From contig CAZXNA010000001.1 of assembly GCA_964641295.1 (NCBI GenBank), forward strand, positions 19,256 to 83,255: a DNA stretch of 64,000 nt, in the 5' to 3' direction. Below the pieces are notes generated by a model. It worked only from the letters and a program-made list of their open reading frames with translations. It had not been told where the DNA came from and did no database searches. Below are positions 4,202 through 57,958 of this stretch, in pieces. Position numbers and translations under genes: made by a program. How positions within the stretch are numbered: position 1 is the stretch's first letter; each line of letters opens with the position of its first letter. Source of the stretch: an uncultured Thermoanaerobaculia bacterium (GTDB taxonomy: Bacteria; Acidobacteriota; Thermoanaerobaculia; Thermoanaerobaculales; Sulfomarinibacteraceae).

Positions 4202-4250
4202 GGGGGCATCATACCGTTTCTCGCTGCCCTGCCGGCGGTTGACCTGAGGA

Positions 4251-14441: not shown

Positions 14442-14511
14442 GCACCACTCCGTGCCGGTTCCTCTCCTGCTGGTGCAGGGCGCCTCAAGCTACCAGAGAG
14501 CTCCGGTGTGG

Positions 14512-16550: not shown

Positions 16551-17143
16551 GGTCTAAAGCGGGCCAGGCGGCCCCTTTCGAGGCCCGGCAGCGGCGAGGT
16601 TACCACATGCCAACCGTCCACCGACCGGAGTCTTTCCGCTTCCTCCAGACCCAGCCAGAGAAGCACCTTTCCACCGGGTGTCAGGCGGGGAAGCGCCCAT
16701 GTCAGCAGCGATTCGTAGCCACCCGTGGCCCGTGAGACCATGGCGTCCACCGATCCGGCCTCCACATCTGCCTCCTCGTACCGGCGATCGACCACCTCGG
16801 CGTCGAGGTCGAGCTCCCGGATGACGGTTCGCAGGAAAGCCCACCGCTTCCGCCGGGGCTCGATCAGCAAACCCCTCCACGACCTTGCCGCCGCCAGGAG
16901 TGGCACACCGGGAAGCCCGGCGCCGCTGCCAACGTCCACCAATACCCCCCCGTCTCCAAGCCACTCCAGCCCGGCCAGCGACTCCAGCACGTGGCGGACC
17001 ACCAGGTCCTGACGGTCCGTGAAACGGACGAGGTTGTGGGTGCGACTCCACCGCTCGAGGAGCTCCAGGTACACCGCCAGGCGCTCCGCCGTGGGCCCCG
17101 CCACGCCGTGGCGGCCCAGAATCTCCATGAAGCCCTCAGCCAC
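16538..17143 (-). CDS. rsmG: 16S rRNA (guanine527-N7)-methyltransferase RsmG (GidB)
   Basis: SAM motif VLVDVGSGAGLPGVPL; position between mnmG and parA. Confidence 0.9.
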   Translation of the reverse strand: MAEGFMEILGRHGVAGPTAERLAVYLELLERWSRTHNLVRFTDRQDLVVRHVLESLAGLEWLGDGGVLVDVGSGAGLPGVPLLAAARSWRGLLIEPRRKRWAFLRTVIRELDLDAEVVDRRYEEADVEAGSVDAMVSRATGGYESLLTWALPRLTPGGKVLLWLGLEEAERLRSVDGWHVVTSPLPGLERGRLARFRPCFT

Positions 17144-42093: not shown

Positions 42094-43002
42094 CTACGCC
42101 TTGGGGTGCGCCGAGCGATAGACCTCCATCAGGTGCGCCAGGTCCACGTGGGTGTAGATCTGGGTGGTGGCCAGGGAGGTGTGGCCCAGGAGCTCCTGGA
42201 TGGCGCGCAGGTCCATGCCGGCCTCCAGGAGGTGGGTGGCGAAGGCGTGGCGGAGGGCGTGGGGGTGGAGCTCGTAGAGCTCGGCCGTACGGGTGACGGC
42301 GGCGTTGAGGATGCGGCGGACGGAGCGGTCGCTGAGGCGGGAGCCCCGCTGGTTGACGAAGAGGGGGTCGCCCTCCTCCCGTGATGGCCCGGAACGCCAG
42401 CGGGCACGCTCGGGCAGGTAGGCCTCGATGGCCGCCAGGGCCTTCCGGCCGAAGGGGACGATCCGCTCCTTGCGGCCCTTGCCCGAAACACGGACCAGAC
42501 GGCGGCCGCGGTCCAGGTCGTCCAGGTCCAGGGTCACGAGCTCGCCGACCCGGAGCCCGGCGCCGTAGAGGAGCTCGAGGATGGCCCGGTCGCGGCGGCC
42601 GGCGGGCGTGTCCGGCAGGCCGTCGAGCATGCGACCGATGGCCTCCGCCGGCACCGTGGGCGGTAGACGCCGCTCCACCCGCGGGTGGGGAACGAGCTCC
42701 GCAGGGTTGGTCCCGACCAGCCCTTCGGTGTTCAGGAATCGGAACCACGCCCTGAGGGATGCCAGGGCACGTTGCACGGAGCGCGGTGCCAGACCGCGGG
42801 ACCTCAGGTGGGCCAGGTAGGCCCGCACATCGACAGCCTCCACTGCTCCCGGCCCGACCCGGCTTAGCTCCTCCTCCGCGAACTCCGCGAAGCTCCGGAC
42901 CTCACGCCGGTAGGCCCTCAGGGTCCGCGGCGACAGGTTCCGCTCCCACTCCAGATGTTCCAGAAAGCGCTCCAGGAACCAGGGATCGTCTGGCCGGTTC
43001 AT
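42094..43002 (-). CDS. xerC: tyrosine recombinase XerC/XerD family
   Basis: N-terminal SAM-like domain FLEHLEWERNLSPRTLRAYRREV. Catalytic C-terminus HALRHAFATHLLEAGMDLRAIQELLGHTSLATTQIYTHV. Confidence 0.88.
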   Translation of the reverse strand: MNRPDDPWFLERFLEHLEWERNLSPRTLRAYRREVRSFAEFAEEELSRVGPGAVEAVDVRAYLAHLRSRGLAPRSVQRALASLRAWFRFLNTEGLVGTNPAELVPHPRVERRLPPTVPAEAIGRMLDGLPDTPAGRRDRAILELLYGAGLRVGELVTLDLDDLDRGRRLVRVSGKGRKERIVPFGRKALAAIEAYLPERARWRSGPSREEGDPLFVNQRGSRLSDRSVRRILNAAVTRTAELYELHPHALRHAFATHLLEAGMDLRAIQELLGHTSLATTQIYTHVDLAHLMEVYRSAHPKA

Positions 43003-43109
43003 GGCACCAGTGTACTCCGTGTCACCCCGGCGTCGGGCTGCGCGCCCAGGTGCGCTGCCCTCGGCCGAGGTCTCTCAAATGGAAAGCGCGTACCGCGGCC
43101 GGCAGAACC

Positions 43110-43997
43110 TCATCCCCGGCGGGAGCTGGCCACCTCCAACACCGCCCGGGCGGCGGCGCGGTAGGCGACGGCCCGCGAGGGACGGAGGAGGGCCCGCGCC
43201 AGGAGGCTGGCCCGGAGTGTGCGGAGGATGGTCCTGGACTCGTTCGGGTGGTGGCGAAGGATGTAACGGCCCATGTTGCGGTGGTAGGCCTCGAGGAAGG
43301 CCCGGTCGCCGAGGGTTGCAGCAGAAACGCCCCCCTCGTGGACGACCGTCGCCCCGGGGACGACCGTGAAGGCGCCAGCGCCGGCGGTCCTCAGGCGGGC
43401 GCAGAAGTCCACGTCCTCCCACCAGGCGGGCTGGTACCGGGGATCGAGACCGTCGAAACCCTCCCACACCCGGCGGCGCAGCAGCCAGCAGGCGGCGGCG
43501 GGCTGCTCGACGGAAACGGGCCGTTTCGGAGGCTGGAGGAATGCGGGGCGACCGGGGCGTCCCAGGGCAAGGTCCACGGGCCGGGGCAGCCGGCGAAGCT
43601 GCCAGCGGTGCTGGGAGCGCCCGTCCTGACCCACCAGGAGAGGGACGACTCCGGGACAGTGGGGGTGCTCGTCCAGGTGCCGCGCCATGGTATCCAGTGC
43701 GCCGGCGGTCAGGCGGGCGTCGGGGTTGAGGAGAAGGATCAACTCCCCGGGTGCGACCTCGGCACCGCGGTCCGCTGCAAAGGCGAAGGAACGGTTTTTC
43801 TCCAGGAGGATGGTGTGGACCTGGGGAAAACGGCGGCCCAGCTTCTCTCCGCCGCCGTCCTTCGATCCGGAGTCCACGAGGACGATCCCCGCCAGGCGCG
43901 CTCCCCCGTGATCCAGCAGCGATTCCAGGCAACGGGCCACCTCCTCGCCGCCGCGGTAGCGAACGACGACGGTGCCGACGTCGGGGGAGTTCACCAC
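43110..43997 (-). CDS. glycosyltransferase family 2
   Basis: ORF 43110..44159 trimmed to GTG 43997/43994 (GAGGAG upstream; GTGGTGA overlap with the upstream stop). VVVRYRGGEEVARCLESLL...LVDSGSKDGG...LLLNPDARL (DxD-like). Confidence 0.75.
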   Translation of the reverse strand: MVNSPDVGTVVVRYRGGEEVARCLESLLDHGGARLAGIVLVDSGSKDGGGEKLGRRFPQVHTILLEKNRSFAFAADRGAEVAPGELILLLNPDARLTAGALDTMARHLDEHPHCPGVVPLLVGQDGRSQHRWQLRRLPRPVDLALGRPGRPAFLQPPKRPVSVEQPAAACWLLRRRVWEGFDGLDPRYQPAWWEDVDFCARLRTAGAGAFTVVPGATVVHEGGVSAATLGDRAFLEAYHRNMGRYILRHHPNESRTILRTLRASLLARALLRPSRAVAYRAAARAVLEVASSRRG

Positions 43998-45169
43998 CGC
44001 CGGCTCCTCAGACCGGCCAGCTCCAAGCCGGCCGCCAGGGACGGCAGGGCCAGGCGGCGGCGCGGGACCAGGGGCAGCCTGGGCAGGGTGCGGACGAGGG
44101 GCTCGGCCACGCGGGGCCAGCGCCAGTCGTCCCGGCTCGCGGCGATGGCCTTCCGGCAACGCAGCTGCTCCCGTTCCGAGGCCATCAGCTCCATGGCGGC
44201 GGCCACGGCCTTGGGACGGTGGACGGGCACCACGGCGCCCCAGCCGAGCTCTCGGGTCAGCTCGGCGACCGCGCCCCCCTCGCTGAGCAGGAGCGGGACC
44301 CCGGCCCAGACGCCGTCAAGGGCCCGGGTCCGGAAGGCCAGCTTCGCCTCTTCCCCCGGATGGTGGAGGACCGCCAGAAGGGTTGCCCGGTTGAGGAGGC
44401 GGTGGCGCTGGGCGTAGGGGAGCCAGGTCTCCAGCGGCAGCACCTGGGGCGGCTTCAGGCCATGGCGTTGGGCCATGTGCAGCAGGGTCTCCCGGTCCAT
44501 GGCCGGCGCGAAACCCCCGGGACGCGCCGTGGCCGGCACGACGAGGGCGAGGGGGGCGTCGCCCAGTCGGGCCCGGGCCGCCAGGAGCGTCTCCAGGTCC
44601 AGCCAGGGCCAGACCCCGCCCCACCACAGGACCATGGCCCAGTCGTCGGGCAGGTCCGGTGGGGACCAGACCTCCTGCGGTGGGTCGTCCTCGGGGATCC
44701 CGAAGGGCACGTCGAGCACGGGAACCCCGGGACGGCCGGCTCGCTCGAGAACATCATGCCACCAGGCGGCCTGGGCCTCACCGGCGGCCAGCACGGCGTC
44801 GGCCCGCGCCAGGACGAGGGGCAGGCGGGCCCGTGCGGTGGCCCGGCGCCGCCGGATCTCCGGCGTGTCCAGTGTGGCGTTGAGCTCCGCCAACAGGGGG
44901 GTCACGCCGTCGACGATCAGGATCCGTTTGCCGAGGAATGCCAGGGGCGGCAGGTTCCACGGTGGGCTGAGGATCGCCTCGGCATGACGGAGCGGGGCGC
45001 CCACTGTAACGGTCGGGCCGCCGGGCCCCGGAGCCTCGGAACCCCGGCCTCCGCCAACCCTCACCCGGTGCCCGGCGGCGGCCAGGACCCGGCCCAGCTC
45101 CCAGGCGCGGAGGGCCGACCCGGCCATGGCCGGTCCGACGCGGTCGTCGGTCAGAACGGTGATCCTCAT
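43991..45169 (-). CDS. glycosyltransferase, GT1/GT4-like (GT-B fold)
   Basis: ORF 43991..45820 trimmed to ATG 45169 (GGAGG upstream; ATGA overlap with the upstream stop). MRITVLTDDRVGPAMAGSALRAWELGRVLAAAGHRVRV, and a C-terminal ...LDGVWAGVPLLLSEGGAVAEL block. Confidence 0.6.
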   Translation of the reverse strand: MRITVLTDDRVGPAMAGSALRAWELGRVLAAAGHRVRVGGGRGSEAPGPGGPTVTVGAPLRHAEAILSPPWNLPPLAFLGKRILIVDGVTPLLAELNATLDTPEIRRRRATARARLPLVLARADAVLAAGEAQAAWWHDVLERAGRPGVPVLDVPFGIPEDDPPQEVWSPPDLPDDWAMVLWWGGVWPWLDLETLLAARARLGDAPLALVVPATARPGGFAPAMDRETLLHMAQRHGLKPPQVLPLETWLPYAQRHRLLNRATLLAVLHHPGEEAKLAFRTRALDGVWAGVPLLLSEGGAVAELTRELGWGAVVPVHRPKAVAAAMELMASEREQLRCRKAIAASRDDWRWPRVAEPLVRTLPRLPLVPRRRLALPSLAAGLELAGLRSRRW

Positions 45170-46089
45170 GGGGCCTCCAGGGGCAACCCGTCGAGACGGG
45201 GGCCGGGTGTCCTCCGGGACAAGCTCGTACCGACCAGCCAGGGCCACGCAGCCGCCACGGCCACGCCCACGACCGGGGCCCGCCAGTTGTCGCGACTGAT
45301 GGTGCGGAGGGCCCGGAGCTCCCCACGGAGCAGCCGGGGAAGGCTCCGGAGGAAGGCCCGGGCACCGAGATTCCCCGCCAGGGTCCGCCAGCGGTTGGCC
45401 AGGAGCCACCACGGGTGGCGCCAGGCGAGGCGCGATCCCGAGGCCGAACCCAAGTGGCGACAGGGCGCGCCGGGAACCCAGAGGGCGTTCCATCCCAGCC
45501 GCCCGAGGCGCAGGCCCAGGTCCAGATCCTCGTGGTAGGCCCCGAAGGATTCGTCGAGGACCTTTCCCGAGGGGAGGGCGGCAGCATGGAGCGCCTCCCG
45601 GCGGAAAAGGACAGCCGTGCCCGAGACGGCCAGGCGGAGGACCGGCGCATCCGGCTCGGGTCCCGCGGGCTCGCCCCGATCCACCTGGACGGGCAGGCCG
45701 AACCGGTCCAGGGCGATACCGCGCCCGTCGACGGTGGTGCCGGCGGCATCGGTGACGGTGCCCTGGATGGCGGCGGCGCGGGGCTGCCTCCTCATTGCCG
45801 CCTCCAGGGTGCCGAGCCACGCCGGCGCAGGAAGGGCGTCGTCGTTGAGCACGGCCACCGTTGGCGCGTCCCCGGCCGCTTCGAGGCCCCGGTTGACGGC
45901 GGCGGCGAACCCCAGGCGACGGGGGGAGCTGAGGACCTCCACGGGAGCCGGCAGCTCGATCCCGGCCGCGGCTCCCGAGGCCACCACGAGTATCCGCTCC
46001 ACGGGGGGGGTCTGGGCCTCCAGGGCCTCGAGGCAGGCGGTCAGCGTGGGTGCACCCACGGTGGGGACAACTACGGGAGGCGGGCTCAC
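45166..46089 (-). CDS. glycosyltransferase family 2
   Basis: ORF 45166..48423 trimmed to GTG 46089 (GGAGG upstream; GTGA overlap with the upstream stop). VVVPTVGAPTLTACLEALEAQT...AAAVNRGLE...VAVLNDDALP...YHEDLDLGLRL. Confidence 0.75.
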   Translation of the reverse strand: MSPPPVVVPTVGAPTLTACLEALEAQTPPVERILVVASGAAAGIELPAPVEVLSSPRRLGFAAAVNRGLEAAGDAPTVAVLNDDALPAPAWLGTLEAAMRRQPRAAAIQGTVTDAAGTTVDGRGIALDRFGLPVQVDRGEPAGPEPDAPVLRLAVSGTAVLFRREALHAAALPSGKVLDESFGAYHEDLDLGLRLGRLGWNALWVPGAPCRHLGSASGSRLAWRHPWWLLANRWRTLAGNLGARAFLRSLPRLLRGELRALRTISRDNWRAPVVGVAVAAAWPWLVGTSLSRRTPGPRLDGLPLEAP

Positions 46090-49000
46090 CGGGAGGCCTC
46101 CACGCGGTCGATCAGCACGGCTGTCCCCGGTGGACCATCCCACCGGAGGCGGAGGGAAGCCCTTCCGGGGACCGGTACCGGTGGCAGGGGAAGGCGACGC
46201 CAGCCCTCCCCGGCCCAGCGGAGGGCCGAGAGGGAGCCGGAGCCCCAGTCCGCCAACAGGCGTCCGCCGCCTGGAGCCTTCATGCTTCCCCGTACGCGGA
46301 CGAACAGACGGGCGTGCCGCGGCGGCCGCCAGGGGATGGCCAGGGATTGGCCGGGCTCCAGGCGCCAGGAGATGGCGTGGGCCGCCCGGAAGAAGGCGCC
46401 GGGCGGTGGGTCGGCATGCCCGCCGTGGTGAACCACCTGGGGATCCTCGGCATGAACGCGCCACTCGGGCAGCTCCACGGCGGCCGCCAGGCCTCCGGCC
46501 AGGGCGGCGATGGTGAGAGCCGCCGCGGCCACCCGGTGGGTGGGACGGCGCGACCACGCCCACGCCAGGGCGACGAAGAGCGCCGGGAAGGCCAGGGCTG
46601 CAACGTTGGGCCGGATGAGGGAGGGGAAGAGGCGGCGTCCGCCGACGGTCAGGGCCCGGGAAAGGGAATCGGCCAGCCACCACCCGCCGTCCCCGGGGTT
46701 GAACCACCACAGTGGCCGGGTAACGGCCACCCAGGCGGCCAGAGCACCGAGGGGGAGCACGAGCCGGACCAGACGCCGTCCCCGGGCCGAGCCCATGGTC
46801 TCGACCAGGGCGAGAAGGGCCAGGGGCAGAACGGGCGCCAGGTAGCGCACGGGCGGCGAGCCGCCCCCGTACCACTCTCCGCGGGGCGCCAAGGCAAAGA
46901 CCGTCAGGGCGGCCCCGGCGATCAATGCCCGTTCGCCCGGGCCTCCGCGCCGCCAGACCGACGGCAGAAAGGCCAGGGCCACCAGCCAAAGGGGGGCGGC
47001 GAAGGCCAGGCCGGCCGAGGCGTCCCACAGAAGTCCCCACAGACCGCGGCCGAAGGCCACGGGGTCCGATGGAACCAGCTCGCCCAGGGAGTGTCGGCCC
47101 AGTGGACCGCCCAGGAGCAGGGCGACGCCGGTCAGGGCCAGCATGGCCGCCGCTGCGGTGACGAGGACGGCACGGCGGCTCCGGCCCCGGAAGCCGGCGA
47201 CGGCCGCGAGGGGCAAGGTCAACAGTCCCAGGCGGACCTTGACCAGGAGGGAGAGGCCGGCGGCGGCGGCGGCGGTGAGAGGCGCAGGCCGCGCGGCCGC
47301 CAGGAGGAGCAGGGCGGCCGCCGCGGCCCCGAAGGCCGCGGGCCACAGTTGGGTGCCATAAATCAGGGCGGGACATCCGAGCAGCACGAGCCCCCAGGCC
47401 GTGTCCACGGAGAGCCGTGAGGCTCCCAGCTCCGCCGCTCGTCGGGCGGCCGCCCACGCCGCCAGGGCCATGAGGAAGGCCACGGTCAGCAGGGCGCCGC
47501 CCATGCCCAGGGTGATGTAACCGGGCAGGGCGACCAGGGCGGGCAGTGGGGAGTGGATCAGCTGGCTTCCGTGGGGGCTGTAGATGACCTCGGAGGGCTT
47601 GGTGGGGTCGATGTTGTTGGAGATGTCCAGGTCGTGATCGGCCACGAGGCTGCGGTCGATCAGGAGCTGGTAGACCTCGTCGCCCGCGGGGTGGCGCAGC
47701 AGGGGCTGGGCAAGGGCCAGGGGCGCCAGAATGAGGAAGCCAGCCAGGAGCTTCCGGTTCCGCAGGTGGCGGAGGGCGAGGAGGCCGGCGAGGAAGGCCA
47801 CGACGGCCAGGTCGGCCACATCCCGGAAGGCGGGGCGTGCGAGGGGCGCGAAGCCCGATCCGGCGGCAAAAAGTCCCGCGAGCACGACGGTCAGCCCGAG
47901 GGTCGCGGGGAGCGTCGCGCTCCGGGGAACCAGGAGGGCCGCCAGGAGGAGCAGGAGGACACCGCCCATCAGTGCGGCCAGGCGTCTGCGCCGGTGCTTC
48001 CACCGCTCCAAGGGTTCCATGCGAACGACGGTGGATCGCCGGGCCTCGAGGATCGTCTGGCCGGGGACCTTCCGCGTGGACACCCCACGGAGAACGATCC
48101 CGGCGCGGCGGCCCCGGCCGGAAGCCAACATCAGAGGGTGGCGAGGCTGCGACCCGGGAACCGGAAGGTCCCGGCCCAGGCGGAGCGCTCCGGAAGTCCC
48201 GTCCACGAAGGCCAGCGCCTCGGTGCCGGCTTTCTCCGGGGAACCCACGGCCTGGGCCAGGAATACGGCGCCCCCGGCGGGCACGGTGATCCCCTGTCCT
48301 GGTTCCAGGTGCCGGTCTCCACCCTCGACGGGGGTGGTCCAGATGAGCCCTGCCACCGCCAGGACCCAGGCCAGCCGGGCGGCCCGGTGGGGAATGAGCG
48401 ACAGGAGCAACGCCGCCGTCCATCCCGCCGCCAGGAGGGCCGTCGACGCAACCAGGGGAGGGGGCGAGCCCCAGAGGGCCCCGAGGATGACCACTGTCGA
48501 GGCACCAAAGGACCAGGGGAGGGATCGCTGCACGGCCCCGTTTCCGGAAATCCGGACGCCTGGCAACGCGGCCAGCCAGAGGGCCGCGGCCGCCGCGCCG
48601 AGCCAGGGCCCACCACCGAGGAAGGGCAGCGCCAGGAGCCCCACACCCAGGACGTCACGGGCGTCACCCTCGGAAGAGCGGCGGGATGCCAGACCGAGCA
48701 CGGCGGCCGGCAGAAGAAAGGGCAGCGCCACGGCCGAGAGGGGCAGGATGGAGGCCATGACGGCCGGCGAGGGCCAGGAGAGCAGGGAGACGCCGGGTGG
48801 CAGCCGCCAGAGCGCCAGGCCGGCGGCCGGCAGGAGCAAGAGCAACGGCCATGGACTGCGTCGCCTGCGGGCGAGACCGGTCAGGAGCCCGGCGCCCAGG
48901 GCGAGGCCCGCTGGGGGCAGGAGGGAGGCCACCATGGCCAGTACGGCGGCCTCGCGAACCCGGCCATGCCGCAGGGAGAGCAGACCACCGGCCAGGATGG

Positions 49001-49556
49001 GCGGCAACAGCCAGGCCAGGGCATGGGCCGGCCCAACGGCGGCGGCCGCGGCCACGGCGCCGGCCAGGGCCAGGAGAGGTCCTGTCATGGGGACGAGAAG
49101 GGCGGCGGTCAGGGGCGGTCCCGCCAGGACCATGGCCGCCTTGAGGGGCCAGAGGGGCGCTCCGAAGGTGCCCGTGGCCAGGATCACGCCGGCCACGGCA
49201 GCCCCCAGGACGGCCAGGCGGGTCCGTGTGGCGTGGTCTGCCCTGGGCCACGCCCCGGCCAGGGAGAGGCCCGTGGCGGCCACGGCGCCGGCCAGGGCGA
49301 TCAGGTCCCGGTGGGCGGCGGGCTCGGCAATGGTCCAGGCGACGGCCACGCCGCTCAGCGTCAGGCCGGCGAGAAGTCCGCCGAAGGCGCCGCGGCCGCG
49401 GGCCAGCCGCTGGACGAAGCCGACTCCCAGCACCACGGCCAGCACGGCGGCGCCGGCCACGAGGGGATCGGCCCGGCCGGTGCGGACCAGGAGGGCTGCG
49501 AAGACTGCGAAGGCCGCGGGGAGGCCCCAGCTACCGGCGGATCGGCTTGGATCCAT
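46086..49556 (-). CDS. very large polytopic membrane protein; the C-terminal half resembles GT-C (ArnT/PMT-like) glycosyltransferases, the N-terminal half is an uncharacterised multi-TM module
   Basis: ORF 46086..49715; the likely start is ATG 49556 (MDPSRSAGSWGLPAAFAVFAALLV), since 49715 would overlap the divergent gene. It has many Ala/Leu/Gly-rich hydrophobic segments in two blocks separated by a soluble ~120-aa segment. The second block opens with LRHPAGDEVYQLLIDRSL (acidic loop motif) and ends in a ~200-aa soluble domain. Confidence 0.55.
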   Translation of the reverse strand: MDPSRSAGSWGLPAAFAVFAALLVRTGRADPLVAGAAVLAVVLGVGFVQRLARGRGAFGGLLAGLTLSGVAVAWTIAEPAAHRDLIALAGAVAATGLSLAGAWPRADHATRTRLAVLGAAVAGVILATGTFGAPLWPLKAAMVLAGPPLTAALLVPMTGPLLALAGAVAAAAAVGPAHALAWLLPPILAGGLLSLRHGRVREAAVLAMVASLLPPAGLALGAGLLTGLARRRRSPWPLLLLLPAAGLALWRLPPGVSLLSWPSPAVMASILPLSAVALPFLLPAAVLGLASRRSSEGDARDVLGVGLLALPFLGGGPWLGAAAAALWLAALPGVRISGNGAVQRSLPWSFGASTVVILGALWGSPPPLVASTALLAAGWTAALLLSLIPHRAARLAWVLAVAGLIWTTPVEGGDRHLEPGQGITVPAGGAVFLAQAVGSPEKAGTEALAFVDGTSGALRLGRDLPVPGSQPRHPLMLASGRGRRAGIVLRGVSTRKVPGQTILEARRSTVVRMEPLERWKHRRRRLAALMGGVLLLLLAALLVPRSATLPATLGLTVVLAGLFAAGSGFAPLARPAFRDVADLAVVAFLAGLLALRHLRNRKLLAGFLILAPLALAQPLLRHPAGDEVYQLLIDRSLVADHDLDISNNIDPTKPSEVIYSPHGSQLIHSPLPALVALPGYITLGMGGALLTVAFLMALAAWAAARRAAELGASRLSVDTAWGLVLLGCPALIYGTQLWPAAFGAAAAALLLLAAARPAPLTAAAAAGLSLLVKVRLGLLTLPLAAVAGFRGRSRRAVLVTAAAAMLALTGVALLLGGPLGRHSLGELVPSDPVAFGRGLWGLLWDASAGLAFAAPLWLVALAFLPSVWRRGGPGERALIAGAALTVFALAPRGEWYGGGSPPVRYLAPVLPLALLALVETMGSARGRRLVRLVLPLGALAAWVAVTRPLWWFNPGDGGWWLADSLSRALTVGGRRLFPSLIRPNVAALAFPALFVALAWAWSRRPTHRVAAAALTIAALAGGLAAAVELPEWRVHAEDPQVVHHGGHADPPPGAFFRAAHAISWRLEPGQSLAIPWRPPRHARLFVRVRGSMKAPGGGRLLADWGSGSLSALRWAGEGWRRLPLPPVPVPGRASLRLRWDGPPGTAVLIDRVEASR

Positions 49557-49683
49557 GGGGTGCCAGTATATCCCGCCTGGCCCGAGACCTTGACGGAGAA
49601 GGGAACGTCGTTTGGATCGAGGTATTACATGGTCCCGGCCGGCGGCACCGTGGGGAAGGGTCTGCGGCCGGTAGAATGCATCC

Positions 49684-50865
49684 ATGTCCAGCGGAGCCCG
49701 CGTCGCCCTCTTCATCGCCCTTGTCCTGGGGGTTTGGAGCCTGGAACATCTTTACGTCGGGTGGAGGTTGCTCAACCTGCCGTGGCTCGCCCGGTGTGGG
49801 GGCGGCCGTGGCGTGCTCCTGCTTCTGATCACCGGCTTCTTGGCGTACCCCCTGGGGCGCATCCTCTGGCACGCATGGCGGGTGCCGCTGGCGCCGACCC
49901 TCGAGTGGATCGGGGCCGTGTGGATGGGGGTGCTCTTCCTGCTGCTGGCCTTCTTGCTGCTGGCAGAGCTGCTGAGCCTCGGCGGCCTGGTGGGGGCATC
50001 CCTGACCACGGCGATCCGCTCGGGAGCCGTCGTGGCGGCACTGTTGGCCTCCGCCGTGGGCCTTCACGGGGGTCTCCGCCGCCCGCGCGTGGTGCGCGTC
50101 GAGGTTGCGTTGCCCGGTCTACCCGGGGCGCTCGATGGGCTGAGGCTCCTCCAGCTCTCCGACCTTCACCTGGGCACCCTCACGGGCCGGCGTTTCGTCG
50201 ATTCCCTGGTGGATCTTGCCCACGGCCTCGACCCCGACCTCATCGCCGTCAGCGGCGACCTCTTCGACAGCGATGCGGAAACCGTCGAGGAGCTGGTGCC
50301 GCACCTCAAGCGCCTGCAGGCGCGGCGTGGCGTCTTCGCCGTCCTGGGTAACCACGAGTACTATGCGGGCGCCGAGCGGTGCACACGGCTCATGGAGGCG
50401 GCCGGTCTGGTCGTCCTCGACAACGAGGCCCGGCAGGTGGCGCCGGGCCTGTGGTTGGCGGGGATTCCCTACCGTCGAGGGGCGGGGCAGGCCGGTCGGC
50501 CGGGAGCCGATCTCCGGGCCGCTCTTGCGGTGGTCCCCGAGGAATCGGCGGTCGTGTTGCTCCAGCACGCGCCCGAGCGGGAGGAGGAAGCGGCCGCGGC
50601 AGGGGTTGGCCTGATGCTCTGCGGCCACACCCACGGCGGCCAGATCTGGCCGTTCCACCTGCTGGTGCGAAGGAGGTACCCCCATCTGGCCGGCATCTAC
50701 AAGGTCGGCGCCATGACCGAGATTGTCAGCCGTGGAGCCGGCCGCTGGGGCCCCCCCATGCGCCTTCTGGCGCCGGCCGACGTGGTGCTCGTCACCCTCC
50801 GTCAGCCGCGGGGCATGGGGAGAAGCGCGCCGCCGGACACCGGCAGGTCGACACCGGTCAGGTGA
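49684..50865 (+). CDS. membrane-anchored metallophosphoesterase (calcineurin-like)
   Basis: N-terminal TM helices, then the motifs LSDLHLG, SGDLFDS, LGNHEYY and CGHTHGGQ. The 3' end overlaps the convergent SDR gene by 64 nt. Confidence 0.85.
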   Translation: MSSGARVALFIALVLGVWSLEHLYVGWRLLNLPWLARCGGGRGVLLLLITGFLAYPLGRILWHAWRVPLAPTLEWIGAVWMGVLFLLLAFLLLAELLSLGGLVGASLTTAIRSGAVVAALLASAVGLHGGLRRPRVVRVEVALPGLPGALDGLRLLQLSDLHLGTLTGRRFVDSLVDLAHGLDPDLIAVSGDLFDSDAETVEELVPHLKRLQARRGVFAVLGNHEYYAGAERCTRLMEAAGLVVLDNEARQVAPGLWLAGIPYRRGAGQAGRPGADLRAALAVVPEESAVVLLQHAPEREEEAAAAGVGLMLCGHTHGGQIWPFHLLVRRRYPHLAGIYKVGAMTEIVSRGAGRWGPPMRLLAPADVVLVTLRQPRGMGRSAPPDTGRSTPVR

Positions 50866-51577: not shown

Positions 51578-52816
51578 CTACTCCAAGCTGTCGGCGATGT
51601 GGTGGCAGAGCTTGGACATCCTCCGGCTGTAGGAGCCCAGCTCGTTGTCGTACCAGCCGGCGATCTTGGCGTGAGTGACGGGGATTTCCGCCGAGGGCGG
51701 CGTGCCCTCGAGGCCCGGGAGGCGGAGCTTGCCCAGGTCGATCCGCAGCATCCCCGTGCGCGTGTGGGTCTCGACGGCCTCGATGGTTACGGCGGCCTCG
51801 TGGCCGATCATGTCGGTGGAGACGTTCTGGCGCTCGCTGTAGACGACGCCGCTGTCAGGGAGCTCGGCGTACTGCCGGTAGATCTCGTTCAGGGTCTCCC
51901 GCCGGATGACGCTGTCGCCGCGCTCGTCCAGCTCCGTCTGGAAGGTGCAGTTGAGGATGATGAGGGAGGCCGTCTGGATGGGGACACGGACCGAGTCGGC
52001 GATGAAACCGACGTCCCGGATGGTGGGGATGACGTGCTCCAGGGCCCGGGCGGCCCCCGTGGAAGTCAAGATGATGTTGTTGAGGGCCGAACGGGTCTTC
52101 CGAAGATCCTTGGCGCCGGCCTTGGGCACACTGTCGAGCACGCTCTGGCTGTTGGTGGCGGCGTGGATGGTCGACATGGCCGCCGTCAGCATGTTCCGGG
52201 TCAGCTCGTGGTTGAGCAGGGGGAGCATCATGTGGGCCAGGGCCGTGGTCGTGCAGGAGGCCGCGGAGACCATGCTGTGGACGCCGGGATCGAAGGCGTG
52301 GTGGTTGATGCCGTAGATGAACATGGCGGCGTCTTCGGGCCACCGCCCCTCAAGGCCCTTGACCTTGAAGGCGGCGCTGACGACCACCGCCCGCGCCCCG
52401 GCCTCCAGGTGGCCGCGCAGGCTTCCCTTGGGATCGTCGGAGGGGGCGTTGGGGTCGAGGAAGGCGCCGGTGGTGTCGACCACCAGGTCGACCCCGTGGG
52501 TACCCCAGCCGATCTCCCGCGGGTTGCGGTGCTCCGTCAGGATCTCCACCCGGATCCCCTCGACGTCCAGGACCGGCGGCGAGGACTGGACAACGCGGAT
52601 GCAGCGTGTCGAGCCCTTGTTGCCGTGGAGAAAGACCCCCAGGCTGCCGTAGGTGCTGTCGTTCTCCAGGTACTGGACCACGTCATCGACGCTCCGGCCC
52701 ACCGGCCGCCCCACATTGACCACGAGCCGGCCGAAACGCCTCTCCGAGATCTCGTTCCATACGGTCAGCTTGCCGATGCGTCCCAGTCCGTTGATTCCAA
52801 GAGTCTTCTCGCTCAC
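51578..52816 (-). CDS. glyceraldehyde-3-phosphate dehydrogenase family protein, long form (412 aa)
   Basis: NAD motif GINGLGRIGKL, catalytic Cys block SAASCTTTAL, TIHAATNSQ, LTSTGAARAL and WYDNE, with several insertions relative to ~335-aa GapA. GTG start (GGGGAGG upstream) overlaps the upstream stop as GTGA. Confidence 0.8.
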   Translation of the reverse strand: MSEKTLGINGLGRIGKLTVWNEISERRFGRLVVNVGRPVGRSVDDVVQYLENDSTYGSLGVFLHGNKGSTRCIRVVQSSPPVLDVEGIRVEILTEHRNPREIGWGTHGVDLVVDTTGAFLDPNAPSDDPKGSLRGHLEAGARAVVVSAAFKVKGLEGRWPEDAAMFIYGINHHAFDPGVHSMVSAASCTTTALAHMMLPLLNHELTRNMLTAAMSTIHAATNSQSVLDSVPKAGAKDLRKTRSALNNIILTSTGAARALEHVIPTIRDVGFIADSVRVPIQTASLIILNCTFQTELDERGDSVIRRETLNEIYRQYAELPDSGVVYSERQNVSTDMIGHEAAVTIEAVETHTRTGMLRIDLGKLRLPGLEGTPPSAEIPVTHAKIAGWYDNELGSYSRRMSKLCHHIADSLE

Positions 52817-55800
52817 GTGATGCCTCCCCTGATGCTCGCCCGGTGGGCCGCCGTCGTCAGGACCTCGTGACGGCCCTCGTACACGTTCCCCAAAACCCCG
52901 TCGATGGACACCATATCACCGGTCTCGAAGCGGCGATTTCCGATTTTCGCGCCGTGCTCTCCCTCGACCACGACGAGGTCGTGGCAGTTGACCACGCAGA
53001 CCTTCCCGAGTCGCTTGGCCGTGATGGCCGCGTGGGAGGTGGCCCCGCCGCGGGATGTCAGGAGACCGTCCGCCTGGAGGAGGAGCGGGATGTCCTCGGG
53101 CACCGTGTCGGGGCGCACCAGGATCACCGGGAGCTTTGGATCCTCGTCCTTGAGGCGGCGGATATCGTCCATGGTGAAGGCGATGGCGCCGCTGATGGCA
53201 CCTCCCGAGACGCCGGTCCCACGGGTCAGCAGGCTCTTCATCAAACTCTCGGTATGGGCAAATACGACGGTCTTCTCCTGGCGCAGCAGCCGGAGGGGCC
53301 GCGTCTGGAGCAGGTAGAGGTCCCCGGCCCGTTCCGATTCGAAGGTAAACTCGATCTCCTGGTGCTCGAAGCCCTCCTCGAGGATCAACCGCTCGGCGAT
53401 CTCCCGGAGGCGGGTGTAGACCTCCGGGAAGGCGGTCTCCATGGACATGGGCTCCTTGCTCTCCCGGGTCAGCCGCTGCTTCTCGCTGATGGGCAGGGGG
53501 TGGACCAGGCCGGCCACCACGTCCTCGCCCTGGGAGCACCTGGTGAAGTCGCCGTAAAGCTCGACGCCCGTATGGGACGACCACGGGTCACGGGTGAACA
53601 CGACGCCCGATCCCGAGTTGGCCCCCAGGTTGCCGAAGACCATCCGCTGCACGATGACCGCCGTCCCCCACTCCTCGGCCAAACCGAGCCGCTGACGGAA
53701 CAGGCGCGCGCCCTCGGAGCCCCACGAACGCAGCACGAGAAAGACCGCCTGGAGCAGCTGTTCGAAGGGGTCGTCTTCGGGCAATGCCCCCCGTTCCCCG
53801 GCAAGCTCCCGGTAGCTCAGGGCCAGGGTTTTCATCTGCTCCGCCGAGAACTCCATCTTCCGGGCGATGTTGTGGCGCTCCTTGAACTCCAGCATGATGG
53901 CGTCGAAGGCGTCTCGGTCGACACCCTGGGACATGGCGACGTTCTGGATGAATCGGCGGTAGGAATCCCACGCCGTCCACGCCGAGAGCTCGTCGTGGGC
54001 CATGGCCTCGACGATCTCGTCGTTGAGCCCGACGTTGAGGATCGTGTCCATCATCCCCGGCATGGAGAAGGCCGCACCGCTGCGAACGCTGAGCAGGAGC
54101 GGCCGGTCGGGGTCACCCAGACGGCGGCCCGTGGCGGCCTCCATTTCGTCCAGGGCCCGGCGGATCCGCCGCCGCGTATCCTCCATCAGGGCGCCGTGGC
54201 CCAGGGCCGGGAGGATCCGGAACAGCTCCGTGGAGAGGATGAAGCCCGGTGGGATCGGCAGCCCGAGGCTGGCGAGACGCTGCAGCCCGGCGCCCTTGGC
54301 CCCGACGAAAAGCGGGTCGGGGTGCACGTCGCCCTCACCCTGGATCGGACGGACCAGCCGATCGGCGCGGTAGGCCAGGACGGCGACGCAGGCGTTCCGG
54401 CTGAGGGTGTCCGTCATGATCCGGAGTCCCTCGCGGACGCGGTTGACGAAGAGGTCCAGCTCCTGGACGCCGTAGATCGAGGCCACGGTCGACCGGAGGA
54501 ACTCCTCGGCCAGCGCACCCTTGGCCTCCAGGAGCTCCTGCTCGTCCAGATCCCGGTCCGCCAGGAGGTCGGGAAGGATCCGCTCCAGGTTGCGTTCGTG
54601 GGGCGCGATGAAGTTGACCTCCACGGAGTTCCCCAGGGCCTCGGATATCATCTCCAGGAGGTTGAGGTACTGCCCGACCGTCAGGTTGCCCCAGTCCAGG
54701 ACCTCCTTGAGGAGCCCGACCTGTTCCGAGAGGTTCTTGACCCTGAGGCCGGCGACGCCCAGGGCTCGCAGGATCTCGTGCATCAGCGACGCCGCCCGCA
54801 GCAGGGTGTCCCGCGTCATGAACCCCGTGGGGAACTCGGCGATGCACGCTTCAAGGTGAACCGTCAGGAAGCGCATCAGGCGCAGCATCAGGCCGAGGGC
54901 ATCGAACTTGGGCTCGTGGTAGGTACCGTACACCGAGGGGATGCCGACGGCGATGTGGCGCTTGTAGTAGAGGTTCTCGAACGGCTCGGTCTTGCTCGGG
55001 TCCGTGACGACGGCCTTGAGGTCCTCCAGGAGGGTGTGGCCGTGGTGGAGGATCTCCAGGTGGTCGCCGCCGGCAACGGCAGCCTCGAAGAGCTTGCGGT
55101 GCTCGTGGGGGACGAGGTTGGAACCCTCCAGGGCGTCCAGGGTCTCCCCCGGGTCGTAGTCGTACTTGGCCTTGAGCAGACGGTAGAGGCGGACCAGGAG
55201 GAGGGCACGCTCCCGGTGGACCGGATCGACGGAACCCACGGACTGAAGCCCCTCGGCGAAAGCGTCCACCGGCAGCTCGTCCAGGTCCTTCTCCGTCAGT
55301 CCCGTCGTGTTCTCGAGGCCGGAGAGGGCATCGTGGGCCCCCTGGAACCACGGATCGTCCGGCGAGAGGCTCCGGCGCAGGGACTCGGGGATGAAGGGGT
55401 CGAGGTGGGTGGCATCACCCGTCCGCCACCAGGTGTAGACGGCCCGGGTGAACTCCACGAGGCGGCTGTTGCTCTCGGCGTGGGCCTGCTTGCGCAGGAA
55501 GTGGATGACGGCGTCCTGGCGATAGGAGATCTGGTCGATCCGCGTCGAGACCTCCCGGAGCTCTCCCTCGGAGCCGACGGCGCTGAAGAAAACGGGCAAA
55601 TGCCGCACCAGCTGGAGCACCAGGCTGAACGACTTGGCCACGCCCCCGTTGAGGAGCTGGGAGATGTCCCGCTGGAACAGGTCCGTATCGTTGACGAAGA
55701 CCCCGCGGAAGTGGAGCTGGATGGCCAGGGCCGAGAGCAGCCGTTCAAAGCGCCGGGGATCGCTGCGGATGACCGCCAGCCAGGTCCGCAGACAGACCAG

Positions 55801-56940
55801 GTGGTAGGGGTTGACCTCGACCTCCCACTCCTCGGTGGTGCCCTTGATGCCGGGGGGCTCGAATCCGGTGGCGATAAAGCGGTCGATGAAATGTTCGATC
55901 AGCTGGAAGTCCCCGCGCCGGGCGATCTCTTCCCCCAGGCGGGTGATCCCCTCGAAGAGCCACTGCTTCTCGCGCTGGTCGTCGGCCTTGAGGCAGCCGG
56001 TGATCAGGTCGACGGCCCGGGAGACCTCGTGGGAGTCGCCCGAGGCGCAGAGCTGCTGCAGGGCGAAGTAGAGGCGACGCAGGACCTCCCGGCTGCGGTA
56101 CTGGAACTCCGGCTCGCCCAGCAGGTCCACCAGGATGGTGACGCGGTCGATCAGGCTGGGCACGGTATCGACGGCGGTGAAGAAGGCGTTGAGGAGCTCC
56201 TGGGGGCTGGGGAGCTCAAGCCGGGTGGCCGGCTCCACGTTTGAAGCCGCCACGGCCATGGCCCGCTCGATGGTCGTTCGGAAGGGGGCGAAGGCCTCCA
56301 GGGCGCCCAGGGGGTCCGTCCCCCAGGTGACACCCGAGATGGGGCGCTCGAGGATCCGCACCCAGTCGGCCATGGCGTCGGAGCACAGGGTGCCGTAGAG
56401 GACGGCGGTGCGGGCCCCGGCCGGTGTGTCGTGGCCCAGCTTGCCCGCCAGGCGGCGTACCAGCCCGCCGTGGACCAGGAGCGCCGAAGGGTGCAGGGCG
56501 CAGACCTTTTCCAGGGCTGCCACACCCTCCTGGAGGGGGTCGGAATATTCCTCCCGGTAGGGCGAGTTCGCCAGGCGTTCGAGGAACTGCAGGTGGGTCC
56601 GGGCCAGGGTCTGGACCTCCGCCTCGTCCTCCAGTGAGGGGTAGAGCTCGGCGAAGATCCCCTCCAGGCGCATCATGCAGAGCCTTCGTTGCTCGCTGCC
56701 CTCGTAGTAGTGGAGCATGCCCCCGGTCAGGTCCCGGAGCTCCTGGGAAACGACGCGGGGATTGCGCAGGGGGTGGTGGAGCTCCTTGAGCATCCGCTCG
56801 GCCAGCTGTCGCACGCCGAAGTGGGCGGTCACCGTGTCGAGCAGAACCTTCTCCTCGCCGGGGATGACCACATCGGCCCGGGTCAGGGCCAGATTGGCGT
56901 CGAGCGCCGTGGAGACGAAGGGCTTCCCGGTCGGATGCAT
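52813..56940 (-). CDS. PPDK-like dikinase: ~770-aa uncharacterised helical N-terminal region, ATP-grasp nucleotide-binding domain and phosphohistidine swivel domain; no PEP/pyruvate TIM-barrel
   Basis: ORF 52813..57393 trimmed to ATG 56940 (the promoter lies just upstream). PPDK_N blocks GAKGAGLQRLASLGLPIPPGF, LLSVRSGAAFSMPGMMDTILNVGLN and GTAVIVQRMVFGN. Swivel motif RGGATSHAAITAKRLGKVCV (His codon 53032..53034). The protein ends ~70 aa after that His. Confidence 0.8.
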   Translation of the reverse strand: MHPTGKPFVSTALDANLALTRADVVIPGEEKVLLDTVTAHFGVRQLAERMLKELHHPLRNPRVVSQELRDLTGGMLHYYEGSEQRRLCMMRLEGIFAELYPSLEDEAEVQTLARTHLQFLERLANSPYREEYSDPLQEGVAALEKVCALHPSALLVHGGLVRRLAGKLGHDTPAGARTAVLYGTLCSDAMADWVRILERPISGVTWGTDPLGALEAFAPFRTTIERAMAVAASNVEPATRLELPSPQELLNAFFTAVDTVPSLIDRVTILVDLLGEPEFQYRSREVLRRLYFALQQLCASGDSHEVSRAVDLITGCLKADDQREKQWLFEGITRLGEEIARRGDFQLIEHFIDRFIATGFEPPGIKGTTEEWEVEVNPYHLVCLRTWLAVIRSDPRRFERLLSALAIQLHFRGVFVNDTDLFQRDISQLLNGGVAKSFSLVLQLVRHLPVFFSAVGSEGELREVSTRIDQISYRQDAVIHFLRKQAHAESNSRLVEFTRAVYTWWRTGDATHLDPFIPESLRRSLSPDDPWFQGAHDALSGLENTTGLTEKDLDELPVDAFAEGLQSVGSVDPVHRERALLLVRLYRLLKAKYDYDPGETLDALEGSNLVPHEHRKLFEAAVAGGDHLEILHHGHTLLEDLKAVVTDPSKTEPFENLYYKRHIAVGIPSVYGTYHEPKFDALGLMLRLMRFLTVHLEACIAEFPTGFMTRDTLLRAASLMHEILRALGVAGLRVKNLSEQVGLLKEVLDWGNLTVGQYLNLLEMISEALGNSVEVNFIAPHERNLERILPDLLADRDLDEQELLEAKGALAEEFLRSTVASIYGVQELDLFVNRVREGLRIMTDTLSRNACVAVLAYRADRLVRPIQGEGDVHPDPLFVGAKGAGLQRLASLGLPIPPGFILSTELFRILPALGHGALMEDTRRRIRRALDEMEAATGRRLGDPDRPLLLSVRSGAAFSMPGMMDTILNVGLNDEIVEAMAHDELSAWTAWDSYRRFIQNVAMSQGVDRDAFDAIMLEFKERHNIARKMEFSAEQMKTLALSYRELAGERGALPEDDPFEQLLQAVFLVLRSWGSEGARLFRQRLGLAEEWGTAVIVQRMVFGNLGANSGSGVVFTRDPWSSHTGVELYGDFTRCSQGEDVVAGLVHPLPISEKQRLTRESKEPMSMETAFPEVYTRLREIAERLILEEGFEHQEIEFTFESERAGDLYLLQTRPLRLLRQEKTVVFAHTESLMKSLLTRGTGVSGGAISGAIAFTMDDIRRLKDEDPKLPVILVRPDTVPEDIPLLLQADGLLTSRGGATSHAAITAKRLGKVCVVNCHDLVVVEGEHGAKIGNRRFETGDMVSIDGVLGNVYEGRHEVLTTAAHRASIRGGIT

Positions 56941-56973
56941 GGCTTCCCGTTTCCCGGTCCGGGCCGGGCCCCA

Positions 56974-57002
56974 CTTATACGACTCCCGAGAACGGGTGTC
57001 AA
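56974..57002 (-). promoter_or_regulatory. strong sigma70-like promoter for the dikinase operon
   Basis: Minus strand reads TTGACA (57002..56997), 17 nt, TATAAG (56979..56974), ~33 nt upstream of ATG 56940. Confidence 0.55.
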
Positions 57003-57244
57003 AAACGCCCGGCGGTGGATTGGCCTCGGGGCAGGGGGTTCTGGCGGGCCGGGATCCGGCCGCCGGGATGTTCGGGAGGCTCGGGGAGGCTCCGGTGGGG
57101 CTGGTGGTCGCGGTTTGTGCCCGTGGGGAGGGCGAGTCGCCAGACGGGCGTCCTGAAGCGCCGGTGGACCGAGGCGGGAAGTTCCATTTCCCTTTTCGGG
57201 AACGACCCACGGCTGCCGGTGGTCCAACTGAACAGGAGGTCGCC

Positions 57245-57958
57245 ATGAACCAGCAGAGCCCATCGTCCCGATCGCAGCCGGCCGGTCCGGCCGGGACCTT
57301 CCCCTGGCTGGCGCCGGAAACCGACGGCCGCAGGCTGCTCCCCGTCGCCGCGCTCCTGGCCGCGGCCGTCCATCTCTCGCTGTTCGCCGTCACCTGGCCC
57401 CGGCCGATGCGGACAGGTGCGTCCCGCGATTCCCCGGACCAGCTCCATGTGCTCCGGCTCCAGAACGTCCGCTTCGAGCTACCGAGGCCGAGGGAGGGGA
57501 TTCAGAGGCCCCCAACACGGGTTCCCGTTCCGGACCTCACCCCGGAGGGTCCAGAAATCGTTGAAAGGAGCGCCCGGGAAGAGGAGATCCATGTGGACTG
57601 GGACGCCTGGACGGTGCCGGGATCCATGATCAACGTGCCGCCGCCGCCCGCCGTCGGGGCCGAAACCCCGCGGATCGTCGATGTCGGCGAGATCGAGGCC
57701 CCCCAGGTCCTCGAGCGCGTGCAGCCGGTCTACACCCGGGCCGCCATCGCGGCGCGGCTCGAAGGCGCCGTCATCGTGGAGCTGGTCATCGGTGAGGACG
57801 GACGGGTGGAGAGCGTCCGCGTGCTCCGGGGCCTTCCCCTGGGGTTGATCCGGAGCGCCGTGGAGGCCGTGCGCCGCTGGCGCTTCGAGCCCTCCACCCT
57901 GGACGGGCGTCCCATCAAGGTCCGCTTCCGCCTGACCGTGCACTTTCAGCTCCGGTAA
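57245..57958 (+). CDS. energy transducer TonB family protein
   Basis: ORF 56717..57958 trimmed to ATG 57245 (AGGAGG upstream). One TM helix (LLPVAALLAAAVHLSLFAV), a Pro-rich spacer, and a TonB C-terminal domain PVYTRAAIAARLEGAVIVELVIGEDGRVESVRVLRG...AVRRWRFEP. Confidence 0.85.
   Translation: MNQQSPSSRSQPAGPAGTFPWLAPETDGRRLLPVAALLAAAVHLSLFAVTWPRPMRTGASRDSPDQLHVLRLQNVRFELPRPREGIQRPPTRVPVPDLTPEGPEIVERSAREEEIHVDWDAWTVPGSMINVPPPPAVGAETPRIVDVGEIEAPQVLERVQPVYTRAAIAARLEGAVIVELVIGEDGRVESVRVLRGLPLGLIRSAVEAVRRWRFEPSTLDGRPIKVRFRLTVHFQLR

Follow-up and report, generated by a model that had tools for sequence, protein, structure and literature searches.

What kind of membrane protein heads a chain of overlapping glycosyltransferase genes in an uncultured bacterium, and what might the chain as a whole assemble? 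The genes in question lie in a 64,000-nt stretch of contig CAZXNA010000001.1 (the whole of which is called the window here), from an uncultured member of the Thermoanaerobaculia (Acidobacteriota, Sulfomarinibacteraceae); the Thermoanaerobaculia are a largely uncultured class of the Acidobacteriota, common in soils and sediments. On the minus strand, to which all operon coordinates below refer, a fused polytopic protein of 1156 residues (gene 1, 46086..49556; the giant) is followed by a family 2 glycosyltransferase (GT2) of 307 residues (gene 2, 45166..46089), an enzyme treated here as a divergent family 4 type (GT4-like, GT-B fold) of 392 residues (gene 3, 43991..45169) and a further GT2 of 295 residues (gene 4, 43110..43997). 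The four most likely form the conserved core of a cell-surface glycan assembly locus, in which the giant joins a polytopic partner module and a β-sandwich to a module of the glycosyltransferase superfamily C (GT-C) type and a second β-sandwich.

The outer-face steps of lipopolysaccharide modification, protein glycosylation and cell-wall glycan synthesis are the work of GT-C enzymes, and new families of these continue to be established, GT136 in 2024 among them. A GT-C enzyme within a glycan locus is already known. What is new is, on the one hand, an unannotated GT-C family that occurs almost solely in one acidobacterial class among species-level reference genomes, and, on the other, its pairing with a large polytopic partner that bears a β-sandwich of its own, a pairing constant in the fused and in the examined split loci; the fusion of both into one chain of about 30 helices and 1156 residues is likewise new. 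A literature search on the giant family and on glycan loci of the Thermoanaerobaculia returned no describing or relevant paper.

The C-terminal half and its acidic loop

In an AlphaFold2 model built from a 42-sequence alignment, the giant is predicted with confidence over the whole chain (predicted local distance difference test score, pLDDT, 90.2; predicted template modelling score, pTM, 0.91) and falls into about 17 helices (residues 1-408), a set of β-strands (415-515), a second helical bundle (516-1030) and a second set of β-strands (1033-1155). An earlier note on this DNA had recognised two large hydrophobic blocks parted by a soluble region, which correspond to residues 1-408 and 516-1030 on either side of the stretch 409-515; it had put the C-terminal soluble domain at about 200 residues, where the actual length is about 125 (1031-1156). 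Four parts are distinguished in the following: the N-terminal polytopic module, which belongs to no known family (residues 1-408; 48333..49556), the first β-sandwich (409-520; 47997..48332), the GT-C transmembrane catalytic module, identified by structural similarity and invariant residues (521-1030; 46467..47996), and the C-terminal β-sandwich, which resembles a carbohydrate-binding module (CBM; 1031-1156; 46089..46466).

A comparison of the model with the PDB by Foldseek returned EmbB (7bvf_B) with E 2.5e-5, the sole match below E 0.001, and ArnT (5ezm/5f15), AftB (9dlh) and ALG9 (9s6s) at probability 1.0. GT-C enzymes are defined as polytopic membrane proteins with a core of 7-13 helices (PMC11127046); such a core is contained in residues 516-1030, which form about 13-15 helices in the model. 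Besides this core and the similarity to solved GT-C structures, the superfamily is marked by conserved acidic residues in an outer-face loop early in the catalytic core, and these are found in the giant as well, the outer-face location being deduced from lysine and arginine (K/R) counts in the loops. Taken together, these findings assign the second block to the GT-C enzymes, and by structure to the class of ArnT and Emb, in line with the ArnT/PMT-like layout that had been suspected from the sequence.

The acidic loop (residues 621-670; 47547..47696) is the candidate catalytic loop. It contains the segment HPAGDEVYQLL (residues 622-632), to which the earlier note had drawn attention, and with it the signature G625-D626-E627..Y629; none of G625, D626, D640 and D642 varies in the giant-family alignment, and at least 90% of sequences have E627. 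The invariant residues of the family lie nearly all in the second bundle, and the unfused homologues described below keep the motif in the form GDEP[FYW]Y..L..SL..D.D.D..NNY. The corresponding loop of E. coli ArnT, PDETRYAEISREMLASGDW, which directly follows its first transmembrane helix, resembles the giant's loop in its DE..Y...S/L...D pattern. Short K/R-rich loops alternate with long conserved ones; because the short loops are presumed to be cytoplasmic, the acidic loop and the C-terminal domain are placed on the outer face. The first β-sandwich is predicted to be periplasmic, again from K/R counts. For a β-domain, Foldseek gave CBM36, CBM6, CBM61 and CBM16 at probability 1.0, with TM-scores of 0.4-0.67 on the target over about 110-160 aligned columns; the output does not say which of the two β-domains was aligned.

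By sequence the family stands apart. No Pfam family was found in any of the 42 giant-family members, nor in 10 unfused representatives; there being no PMT or PMT_2 match in the 42 members, the family is not GT83 or GT39 by sequence, the resemblance remaining at the level of the motif, and there being neither an arabinosyltransferase (Arabinose_trans) Pfam match nor a PDB sequence match, it is not GT53 by sequence. Look-ups of cluster members gave no useful names, every named copy of the giant being a 'hypothetical protein'. The sole curated sequence family with detectable similarity is NCBIfam NF047440 (LA_3751/LA_3752, a putative glycosyltransferase of Leptospira), which matches residues 673-925 of the window protein (E 0.018, 13.9 bits, against a cut-off of 200 bits) and, in the unfused homologues, a stretch of about 300 residues in the GT-C core (E 1e-5 to 1e-12, 19-47 bits, against the same cut-off). 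On these scores the giant family is a distant relative, not a member, of NF047440, whose model, 460 positions long, covers neither the β-sandwiches nor the partner module. That family is itself uncharacterised, and a literature search on LA_3751/LA_3752 found no paper.

Among the characterised enzymes, ArnT and PMT (GT83 and GT39) share with the giant their polytopic membrane nature and, in a loop on the outer face that directly follows a transmembrane helix, the DE..Y...(S/L)...D motif. Unlike in ArnT, four helices rather than one precede this loop in the giant's GT-C module, and unlike ArnT and PMT the giant adds a C-terminal CBM-like domain, a fused N-terminal partner of about 400 residues and a further β-sandwich. 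EmbA, EmbB and EmbC (GT53), the second of which is the top match among solved structures, are of similar size (about 1050-1150 residues) and likewise join a GT-C core to β-sandwich carbohydrate-binding-like domains; Emb proteins carry CBMs (PMC11127046). The giant differs from them in that its catalytic loop lies in the C-terminal half and that the global TM-score reaches only 0.23-0.25, and from the mycobacterial proteins also in its phylum and its gene context.

The N-terminal partner and the origin of the fusion

Within the giant, conservation is lowest in the N-terminal module (24% identity to a distant subgroup, as against 38% for the GT-C module), which has no invariant column and almost no conserved polar residues. 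When modelled alone it reaches a pLDDT of 83, and all its fold matches in the PDB lie above E 0.001. There is no WaaL, RodA or FtsW among these matches and no Wzy_C match in Pfam, so that neither line of comparison supports the Wzy- or ligase-like role that had been guessed for the first block; nor are there Polysacc_synt, MATE or GtrA matches in Pfam, or MOP, MATE, MurJ, SMR or GtrA folds, and transporter folds (MFS, ABC, SLC26, ferroportin) appear at probabilities of 0.02 or less. A search for a free-standing copy of the module returned contig-end fragments only.

The fusion of two polytopic modules, claimed in the earlier note from this one sequence, proves to be real and conserved. There are 41 full-length homologues, 1040-1180 residues long. 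We surveyed 83 loci (individual loci bear the prefix L below), 79 of them from a scan of GTDB species-representative genomes, and found the full-length fused protein (1040-1170 residues) in every non-truncated locus, representing about 70 species-level genomes; the hosts are nearly all Thermoanaerobaculia (Thermoanaerobaculales, Sulfomarinibacteraceae, and metagenome-assembled genomes labelled Holophagae or Acidobacteriota). Two subfamilies can be told apart, one of about 1150 residues, which includes the window protein, and one of about 1070, which lacks an insert of about 100 residues (roughly four helices) in the N-terminal module. Two paralogous giants occur on one contig, in tandem or about 17 kb apart, in L003 (7319-13222), L030, L035 and L070, and also in the case of L027 and L043, which share a contig.

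An exhaustive profile search brought up, in addition, hundreds of proteins of 640-780 residues that match the GT-C half only. In all four of the split loci examined (L087, L089, L090 and L091), such a gene is directly preceded by that of a Pfam-less protein of 433-589 residues, with a 4-nt overlap between the two. These upstream partners are polytopic, and the soluble domain at their C-terminal end is related to the first β-sandwich of the giant (blastp E 1e-5 to 1e-3 with at least 10 members; hhalign probability 83%, E 9e-6); the match of the partner proteins to the giant is confined to this β-sandwich, their membrane part remaining unmatched. In L003, L085, L087, L090 and L091 the genes for partner and GT-C have a divergent neighbour just upstream, the seryl-tRNA synthetase gene, and because this conserved synteny is found with fused and with split forms, it links the two.

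Judged from these comparisons, the giant arose by fusion of two genes, which more distant relatives among the Acidobacteriota keep apart, though translationally coupled. In those relatives the two halves are a polytopic partner ending in a β-sandwich, and a GT-C protein of about 720 residues with an outer-face DE..Y loop and a CBM-like C-terminal β-sandwich. The occurrence of two genes in relatives had been named beforehand as a finding that would speak against the fusion; it does occur, in distant relatives, and since about 70 genomes carry the fused form intact, it points to the way the fusion arose and not to an artefact. The fusion is direct genomic evidence, and it is because of it that partner and GT-C are taken to act together.

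A probable lipid-linked glycan pathway and its competitors

Genes 2 and 4 both match PF00535 above its gathering score (45.2 and 45.4 bits, respectively; cut-off 23.3), gene 2 also matching PF13641 and PF13632. In the orthologue alignments, N82-D83-D84 is invariant in gene 2, as is an E187/D188/D190 block, and N91-P92-D93 in gene 4, along with a block W192-W193-E194-D195-x-D197; with the Pfam scores, these DxD-type motifs (D83-D84 and D93) mark both products as GT2 enzymes. The protein of gene 3 has no Pfam match in the window, and its assignment comes through its homologues, of which 26 of 35 match PF13692 (Glyco_trans_1_4) and 21 of 35 match PF13439 (Glyco_transf_4), with E values up to 0.1; some database sources label homologues from Thermoanaerobaculales 'glycosyltransferase family 4 protein', and the family profile finds BshA, PimA, PimB' and MshA weakly in the PDB. 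The family is very well conserved (more than 320 clusters at 57-85% identity). E274 is invariant, and the residue eight positions further on is R282, where the second glutamate of the GT4 motif ExxxxxxxE would fall. Gene 3 is treated at the family level as encoding a divergent GT4-like enzyme of the GT-B type, in agreement with the order giant, GT2, GT1/GT4-like, GT2 that had been read from the sequence. Single-sequence searches of the PDB with genes 2, 3 and 4 were uninformative. Among relatives the GT2-GT4-GT2 trio keeps 50-65% identity, even when it lies on the opposite strand.

A WbaP-like priming phosphoglycosyltransferase is encoded within 10 kb in 56 of the 83 loci. In L085 it belongs to a coupled operon of giant, GT2, GT4 and priming transferase, and in L090 to one of partner, GT-C, three GT2, GT4 and priming transferase. 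This position beside or inside the operon in relatives suggests that the glycan is built on a polyprenyl-diphosphate carrier, and that the GT-C module works at the outer face. GT-C enzymes use lipid-linked donors at the outer face, and some have CBMs that bind the glycan acceptor (PMC11127046); in the reading preferred here, the GT-C module would draw on a sugar linked to a polyprenyl-(di)phosphate.

On balance we think it probable that the coupled cytoplasmic enzymes build a lipid-linked glycan and that the GT-C module, together with its partner and the β-sandwiches, transfers a polyprenyl-linked sugar or glycan to a glycan acceptor outside. What the analysis shows is the gene structure, the family and fold assignments, the conservation, the relation of fused to split forms and the genomic association; the course of such a pathway, as set out next, is inferred throughout. 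A phosphoglycosyltransferase, encoded beside or inside the operon in relatives and presumably elsewhere in the genome from which the window comes, would prime the polyprenyl-phosphate carrier; the three cytoplasmic enzymes would then add sugars from nucleotide-sugar donors at the inner face of the membrane, and the lipid-linked product would cross to the other side. There the GT-C module would use D626/E627 and D640/D642 to transfer a sugar or glycan from the polyprenyl-linked donor to a glycan acceptor, which both β-sandwich domains may hold.

Several observations weigh against this proposal. The window contains no priming transferase and no recognisable flippase, polymerase or exporter, and of the self-contained lipid-linked pathway suggested in the earlier note, it is the lipid-linked character that finds support, in the priming transferase of relatives, and not the self-containment. 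The structural similarity of the giant to known GT-C enzymes is modest (Foldseek TM-score 0.21-0.25 on the query and 0.37-0.41 on the target); the profile of the giant family finds chance matches only among PDB sequences, and hhalign between the family and E. coli ArnT gives a probability of 0.4%. The first helix of the GT-C module is preceded by a positive patch, RWKHRRRR, which the predicted topology would put in the periplasm, contrary to the positive-inside rule. In the N-terminal module, the motif G-R-x-A-E (giant residues 57-64; 49364-49388), conserved in about 90% of the family, is absent from the window protein, which has L61 and G64 in place of the conserved R and E; its two closest relatives have the same substitutions. 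Finally, the profiles of the two GT2 enzymes, searched against the PDB, point to no substrate class, be it chain extension or the synthesis of a polyprenyl-phosphate sugar.

The competing explanations differ from this proposal in the donor and in the role given to the partner, and not all of them exclude it. It is possible, if rather unlikely, that the locus follows the logic of the three-component Gtr and ArnC-ArnT systems: the GT2 of gene 2 would make a polyprenyl-monophosphate sugar, the N-terminal module would possibly flip it, and the GT-C module would attach single sugars to a glycan that other enzymes have made, the GT4-like protein and the second GT2 among them. A GT2 gene does follow the GT-C gene immediately, usually with an overlap, in fused and in split loci, the operon has no separate small flippase gene in its list of open reading frames (ORFs), and the DE..Y loop resembles that of ArnT, whose donor is undecaprenyl-P-Ara4N; monophosphate-linked donors are also used by the Emb proteins, AftD and the GT136 enzyme. 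CBM-bearing GT-C enzymes (Emb proteins, AftD, the GT136 enzyme ORF12) act on glycan acceptors, and in the three-component systems (GtrA/B/C; GT136 ORF12) the GT-C enzyme, CBM-bearing in GT136, is encoded beside the enzyme for the lipid-linked donor within glycan loci (PMC11127046). Here, however, the operon holds no gene for a GtrA, SMR or MATE flippase, the fold comparison shows no resemblance of the N-terminal module to MOP, MATE, SMR or GtrA flippases, and gene 2 is not demonstrably a polyprenyl-phosphate sugar synthase: the profile of its type (GT2a) finds no such synthase in the PDB, only, and weakly, a chondroitin synthase and an unnamed glycosyltransferase, its hhalign probability with E. 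coli ArnC is 0.06%, and its sequence offers no more than a single weak hydrophobic helix, at the C-terminus. The profile of the gene 4 type (GT2b), which matches many GT-A structures of GT2 enzymes without specificity, does reach ArnC, DPMS and GtrB, but weakly and behind several other GT2 structures. Unlike in the systems described in PMC11127046, moreover, the GT-C enzyme comes with a large polytopic partner, either fused to it or coupled with it. That the giant might instead replace both Wzx and Wzy, the partner module moving an undecaprenyl-diphosphate-linked repeat unit across the membrane and the GT-C module polymerising or ligating it en bloc, is quite unlikely. The idea draws on L090 and L085, where the genes for partner and GT-C are coupled in one operon to those for GT2, GT4 and the priming transferase, on the pTM of 0.91, which suggests that both membrane modules pack as one unit, and on the Pfam record, in which no Wzx, Wzy or ABC-transporter family appears within 8-10 kb per side of ten annotated loci; but several neighbouring genes without a Pfam match could encode divergent Wzx or Wzy proteins within that 8-10 kb view, the fold matches of the GT-C module are to ArnT, Emb and AftB and not to the WaaL/RodA type, and the N-terminal module combines the lack of a flippase-like fold with its near lack of conserved polar residues. 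The loci of relatives are like Wzx/Wzy loci in bringing together a priming phosphoglycosyltransferase, several GT2 and GT4 enzymes and polytopic membrane proteins, and unlike them in that neither the giant nor the annotated neighbours have a Polysacc_synt (Wzx) or Wzy_C family in Pfam.

Two further possibilities concern the nature of the partner and of the acceptor. The N-terminal module could be a degenerate second copy of a GT-C enzyme, which would make the giant a single-chain pseudo-heterodimer (compare EmbA-EmbB and Pmt1-Pmt2) with only its C-terminal half catalytic; the best PDB matches of the isolated module are indeed GT-C enzymes again (EmbC, E 0.1, probability 0.93, TM-score 0.38 on the query; EmbB, probability 0.60; ArnT, 0.47), but given that none of them reaches E 0.001, that hhalign between the two modules of the giant finds no internal duplication (probability 0.35%) and that the N-terminal module has no conserved acidic loop, we hold this to be very improbable. 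Still less probable is a glycolipid or lipoglycan route, similar to that of phosphatidylinositol mannosides and lipomannan or of lipoteichoic acid, in which the GT4-like enzyme would glycosylate a membrane glycerolipid and the GT-C module would extend it at the outer face. The weak profile matches of gene 3 to PimA and PimB', a weak NCBIfam match to an N-acetylglucosaminyl phosphatidylglycerol synthase (E 1.9e-4) and the window's lack of a priming transferase would fit this route, as would a sulfatase-fold protein encoded directly after the giant in some relatives, overlapping it in L004; all the supporting matches fall far below family thresholds, however, and the priming transferase near the giant in most relatives points to a polyprenyl-diphosphate carrier.

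In the proposed transfer from a lipid-linked donor to an outside acceptor, the pair of partner and GT-C offers a concrete case in which to study the access of lipid-linked donors to the active site of a GT-C enzyme. If the loci are truly without Wzx and Wzy, the pair could define a new route of surface-glycan assembly; in its strongest form, which we regard as unlikely, this would make partner and GT-C the machinery of translocation and of polymerisation or ligation in a distinct, phosphoglycosyltransferase-primed route that needs no Wzx/Wzy, ABC transporter or synthase, with the partner as a new translocase for lipid-linked sugars or a subunit for donor delivery.

Gene boundaries and surroundings of the operon

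The window has a G+C content of about 70%, and every real gene is therefore enclosed in longer spurious ORFs; those that mask the starts of genes 2-4 span 45166..48423 (1085 residues), 43991..45820 (609 residues) and 43110..44159 (349 residues), as had been pointed out before, and the giant lies in an open minus-strand ORF of 1209 residues (46086..49715). Its start at 49556, which gives 1156 residues, is the one chosen in an independent JGI call of an identical protein (P0001) and agrees with the N-termini of 41 homologues. The chaining of the four genes is read directly from the sequence, exactly as the earlier note had it: GGAGG, 7 nt and GTGA at 46089-46086, where the GTG start of gene 2 overlaps the giant's TGA; GGAGG, 4 nt and ATGA at 45169-45166, between genes 2 and 3; and GAGGAG, 6 nt and GTGGTGA at 43997-43991, where gene 4 starts at GTG 43997 (or, alternatively, at GTG 43994). 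Motifs of this kind occur at -18 to -4 of 3% of positions in the region, so that finding them at three of three junctions by chance has a probability of about 3e-5; of the claim that each gene is preceded by one, it is only the part on the giant's own start that fails, which has no Shine-Dalgarno motif. Independent gene calls in the orthologous loci L001 and L084 give the identical order and 4-nt overlaps. The G+C content at third codon positions (GC3) is 0.85-0.90, uniform over all four genes and both halves of the giant, and because of this uniformity there is no sign of a frameshift in the giant. A frameshift artefact was considered and is ruled out by the intact ORF, the uniform GC3 and the full-length protein kept in about 70 genomes.

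Upstream of the giant, a box TATACT (49565..49570, minus strand) ends 8 nt before the ATG and is a candidate promoter element for a leaderless or short-leader operon transcript; a scan for consensus promoters and terminators found nothing above chance. The giant and the gene xerC, which follows the operon, have similar boxes before their start codons, TATACTGGCACCCC-ATG and TACACTGGTGCC-ATG (the box of xerC at 43009-43014, minus strand), and neither has a Shine-Dalgarno motif; both boxes look like -10 elements placed for leaderless or very short-leader transcripts.

Further off from the operon, at 7000-32200, lie yidC, mnmE, mnmG, parAB, gyrBA and genes for F-type ATP synthase subunits, and xerC, trmFO and topA follow immediately downstream; because of this origin-region set of genes, the operon is placed in a housekeeping region near the replication origin and not in a polysaccharide island. 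The window holds no glycan gene outside the operon. With regard to the idea of a horizontally acquired island, the GC3 of the operon matches that of neighbouring window genes. The product of xerC, directly downstream of gene 4 (42094-43002, minus strand), is a tyrosine recombinase of the XerC/D type (Phage_integrase and SAM-like domains), and the arrangement of operon and xerC recurs in the 53%-identical locus L084 (xerC at 16572-17480).

In one subgroup of relatives (L004, at 13213-15390, L057, L066, L071 and L080), a sulfatase-fold protein of 725 residues is encoded directly after the giant, in L004 with an overlap with the giant's stop codon; this neighbour hints at an extra step such as a phospho- or sulfo-transfer. 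Two other ORFs of the window, both on the minus strand, may be mentioned. One, of 1526 residues (52813-57393), carries PPDK_N and PEP-utilizer domains in its last 450 or so residues, its first 1000 or so being without a Pfam family; the other, of 591 residues (1660-3435), is Pfam-less, has a coding-like GC3 of 0.85 and adjoins a polyprenyl synthetase gene (3332-4306).

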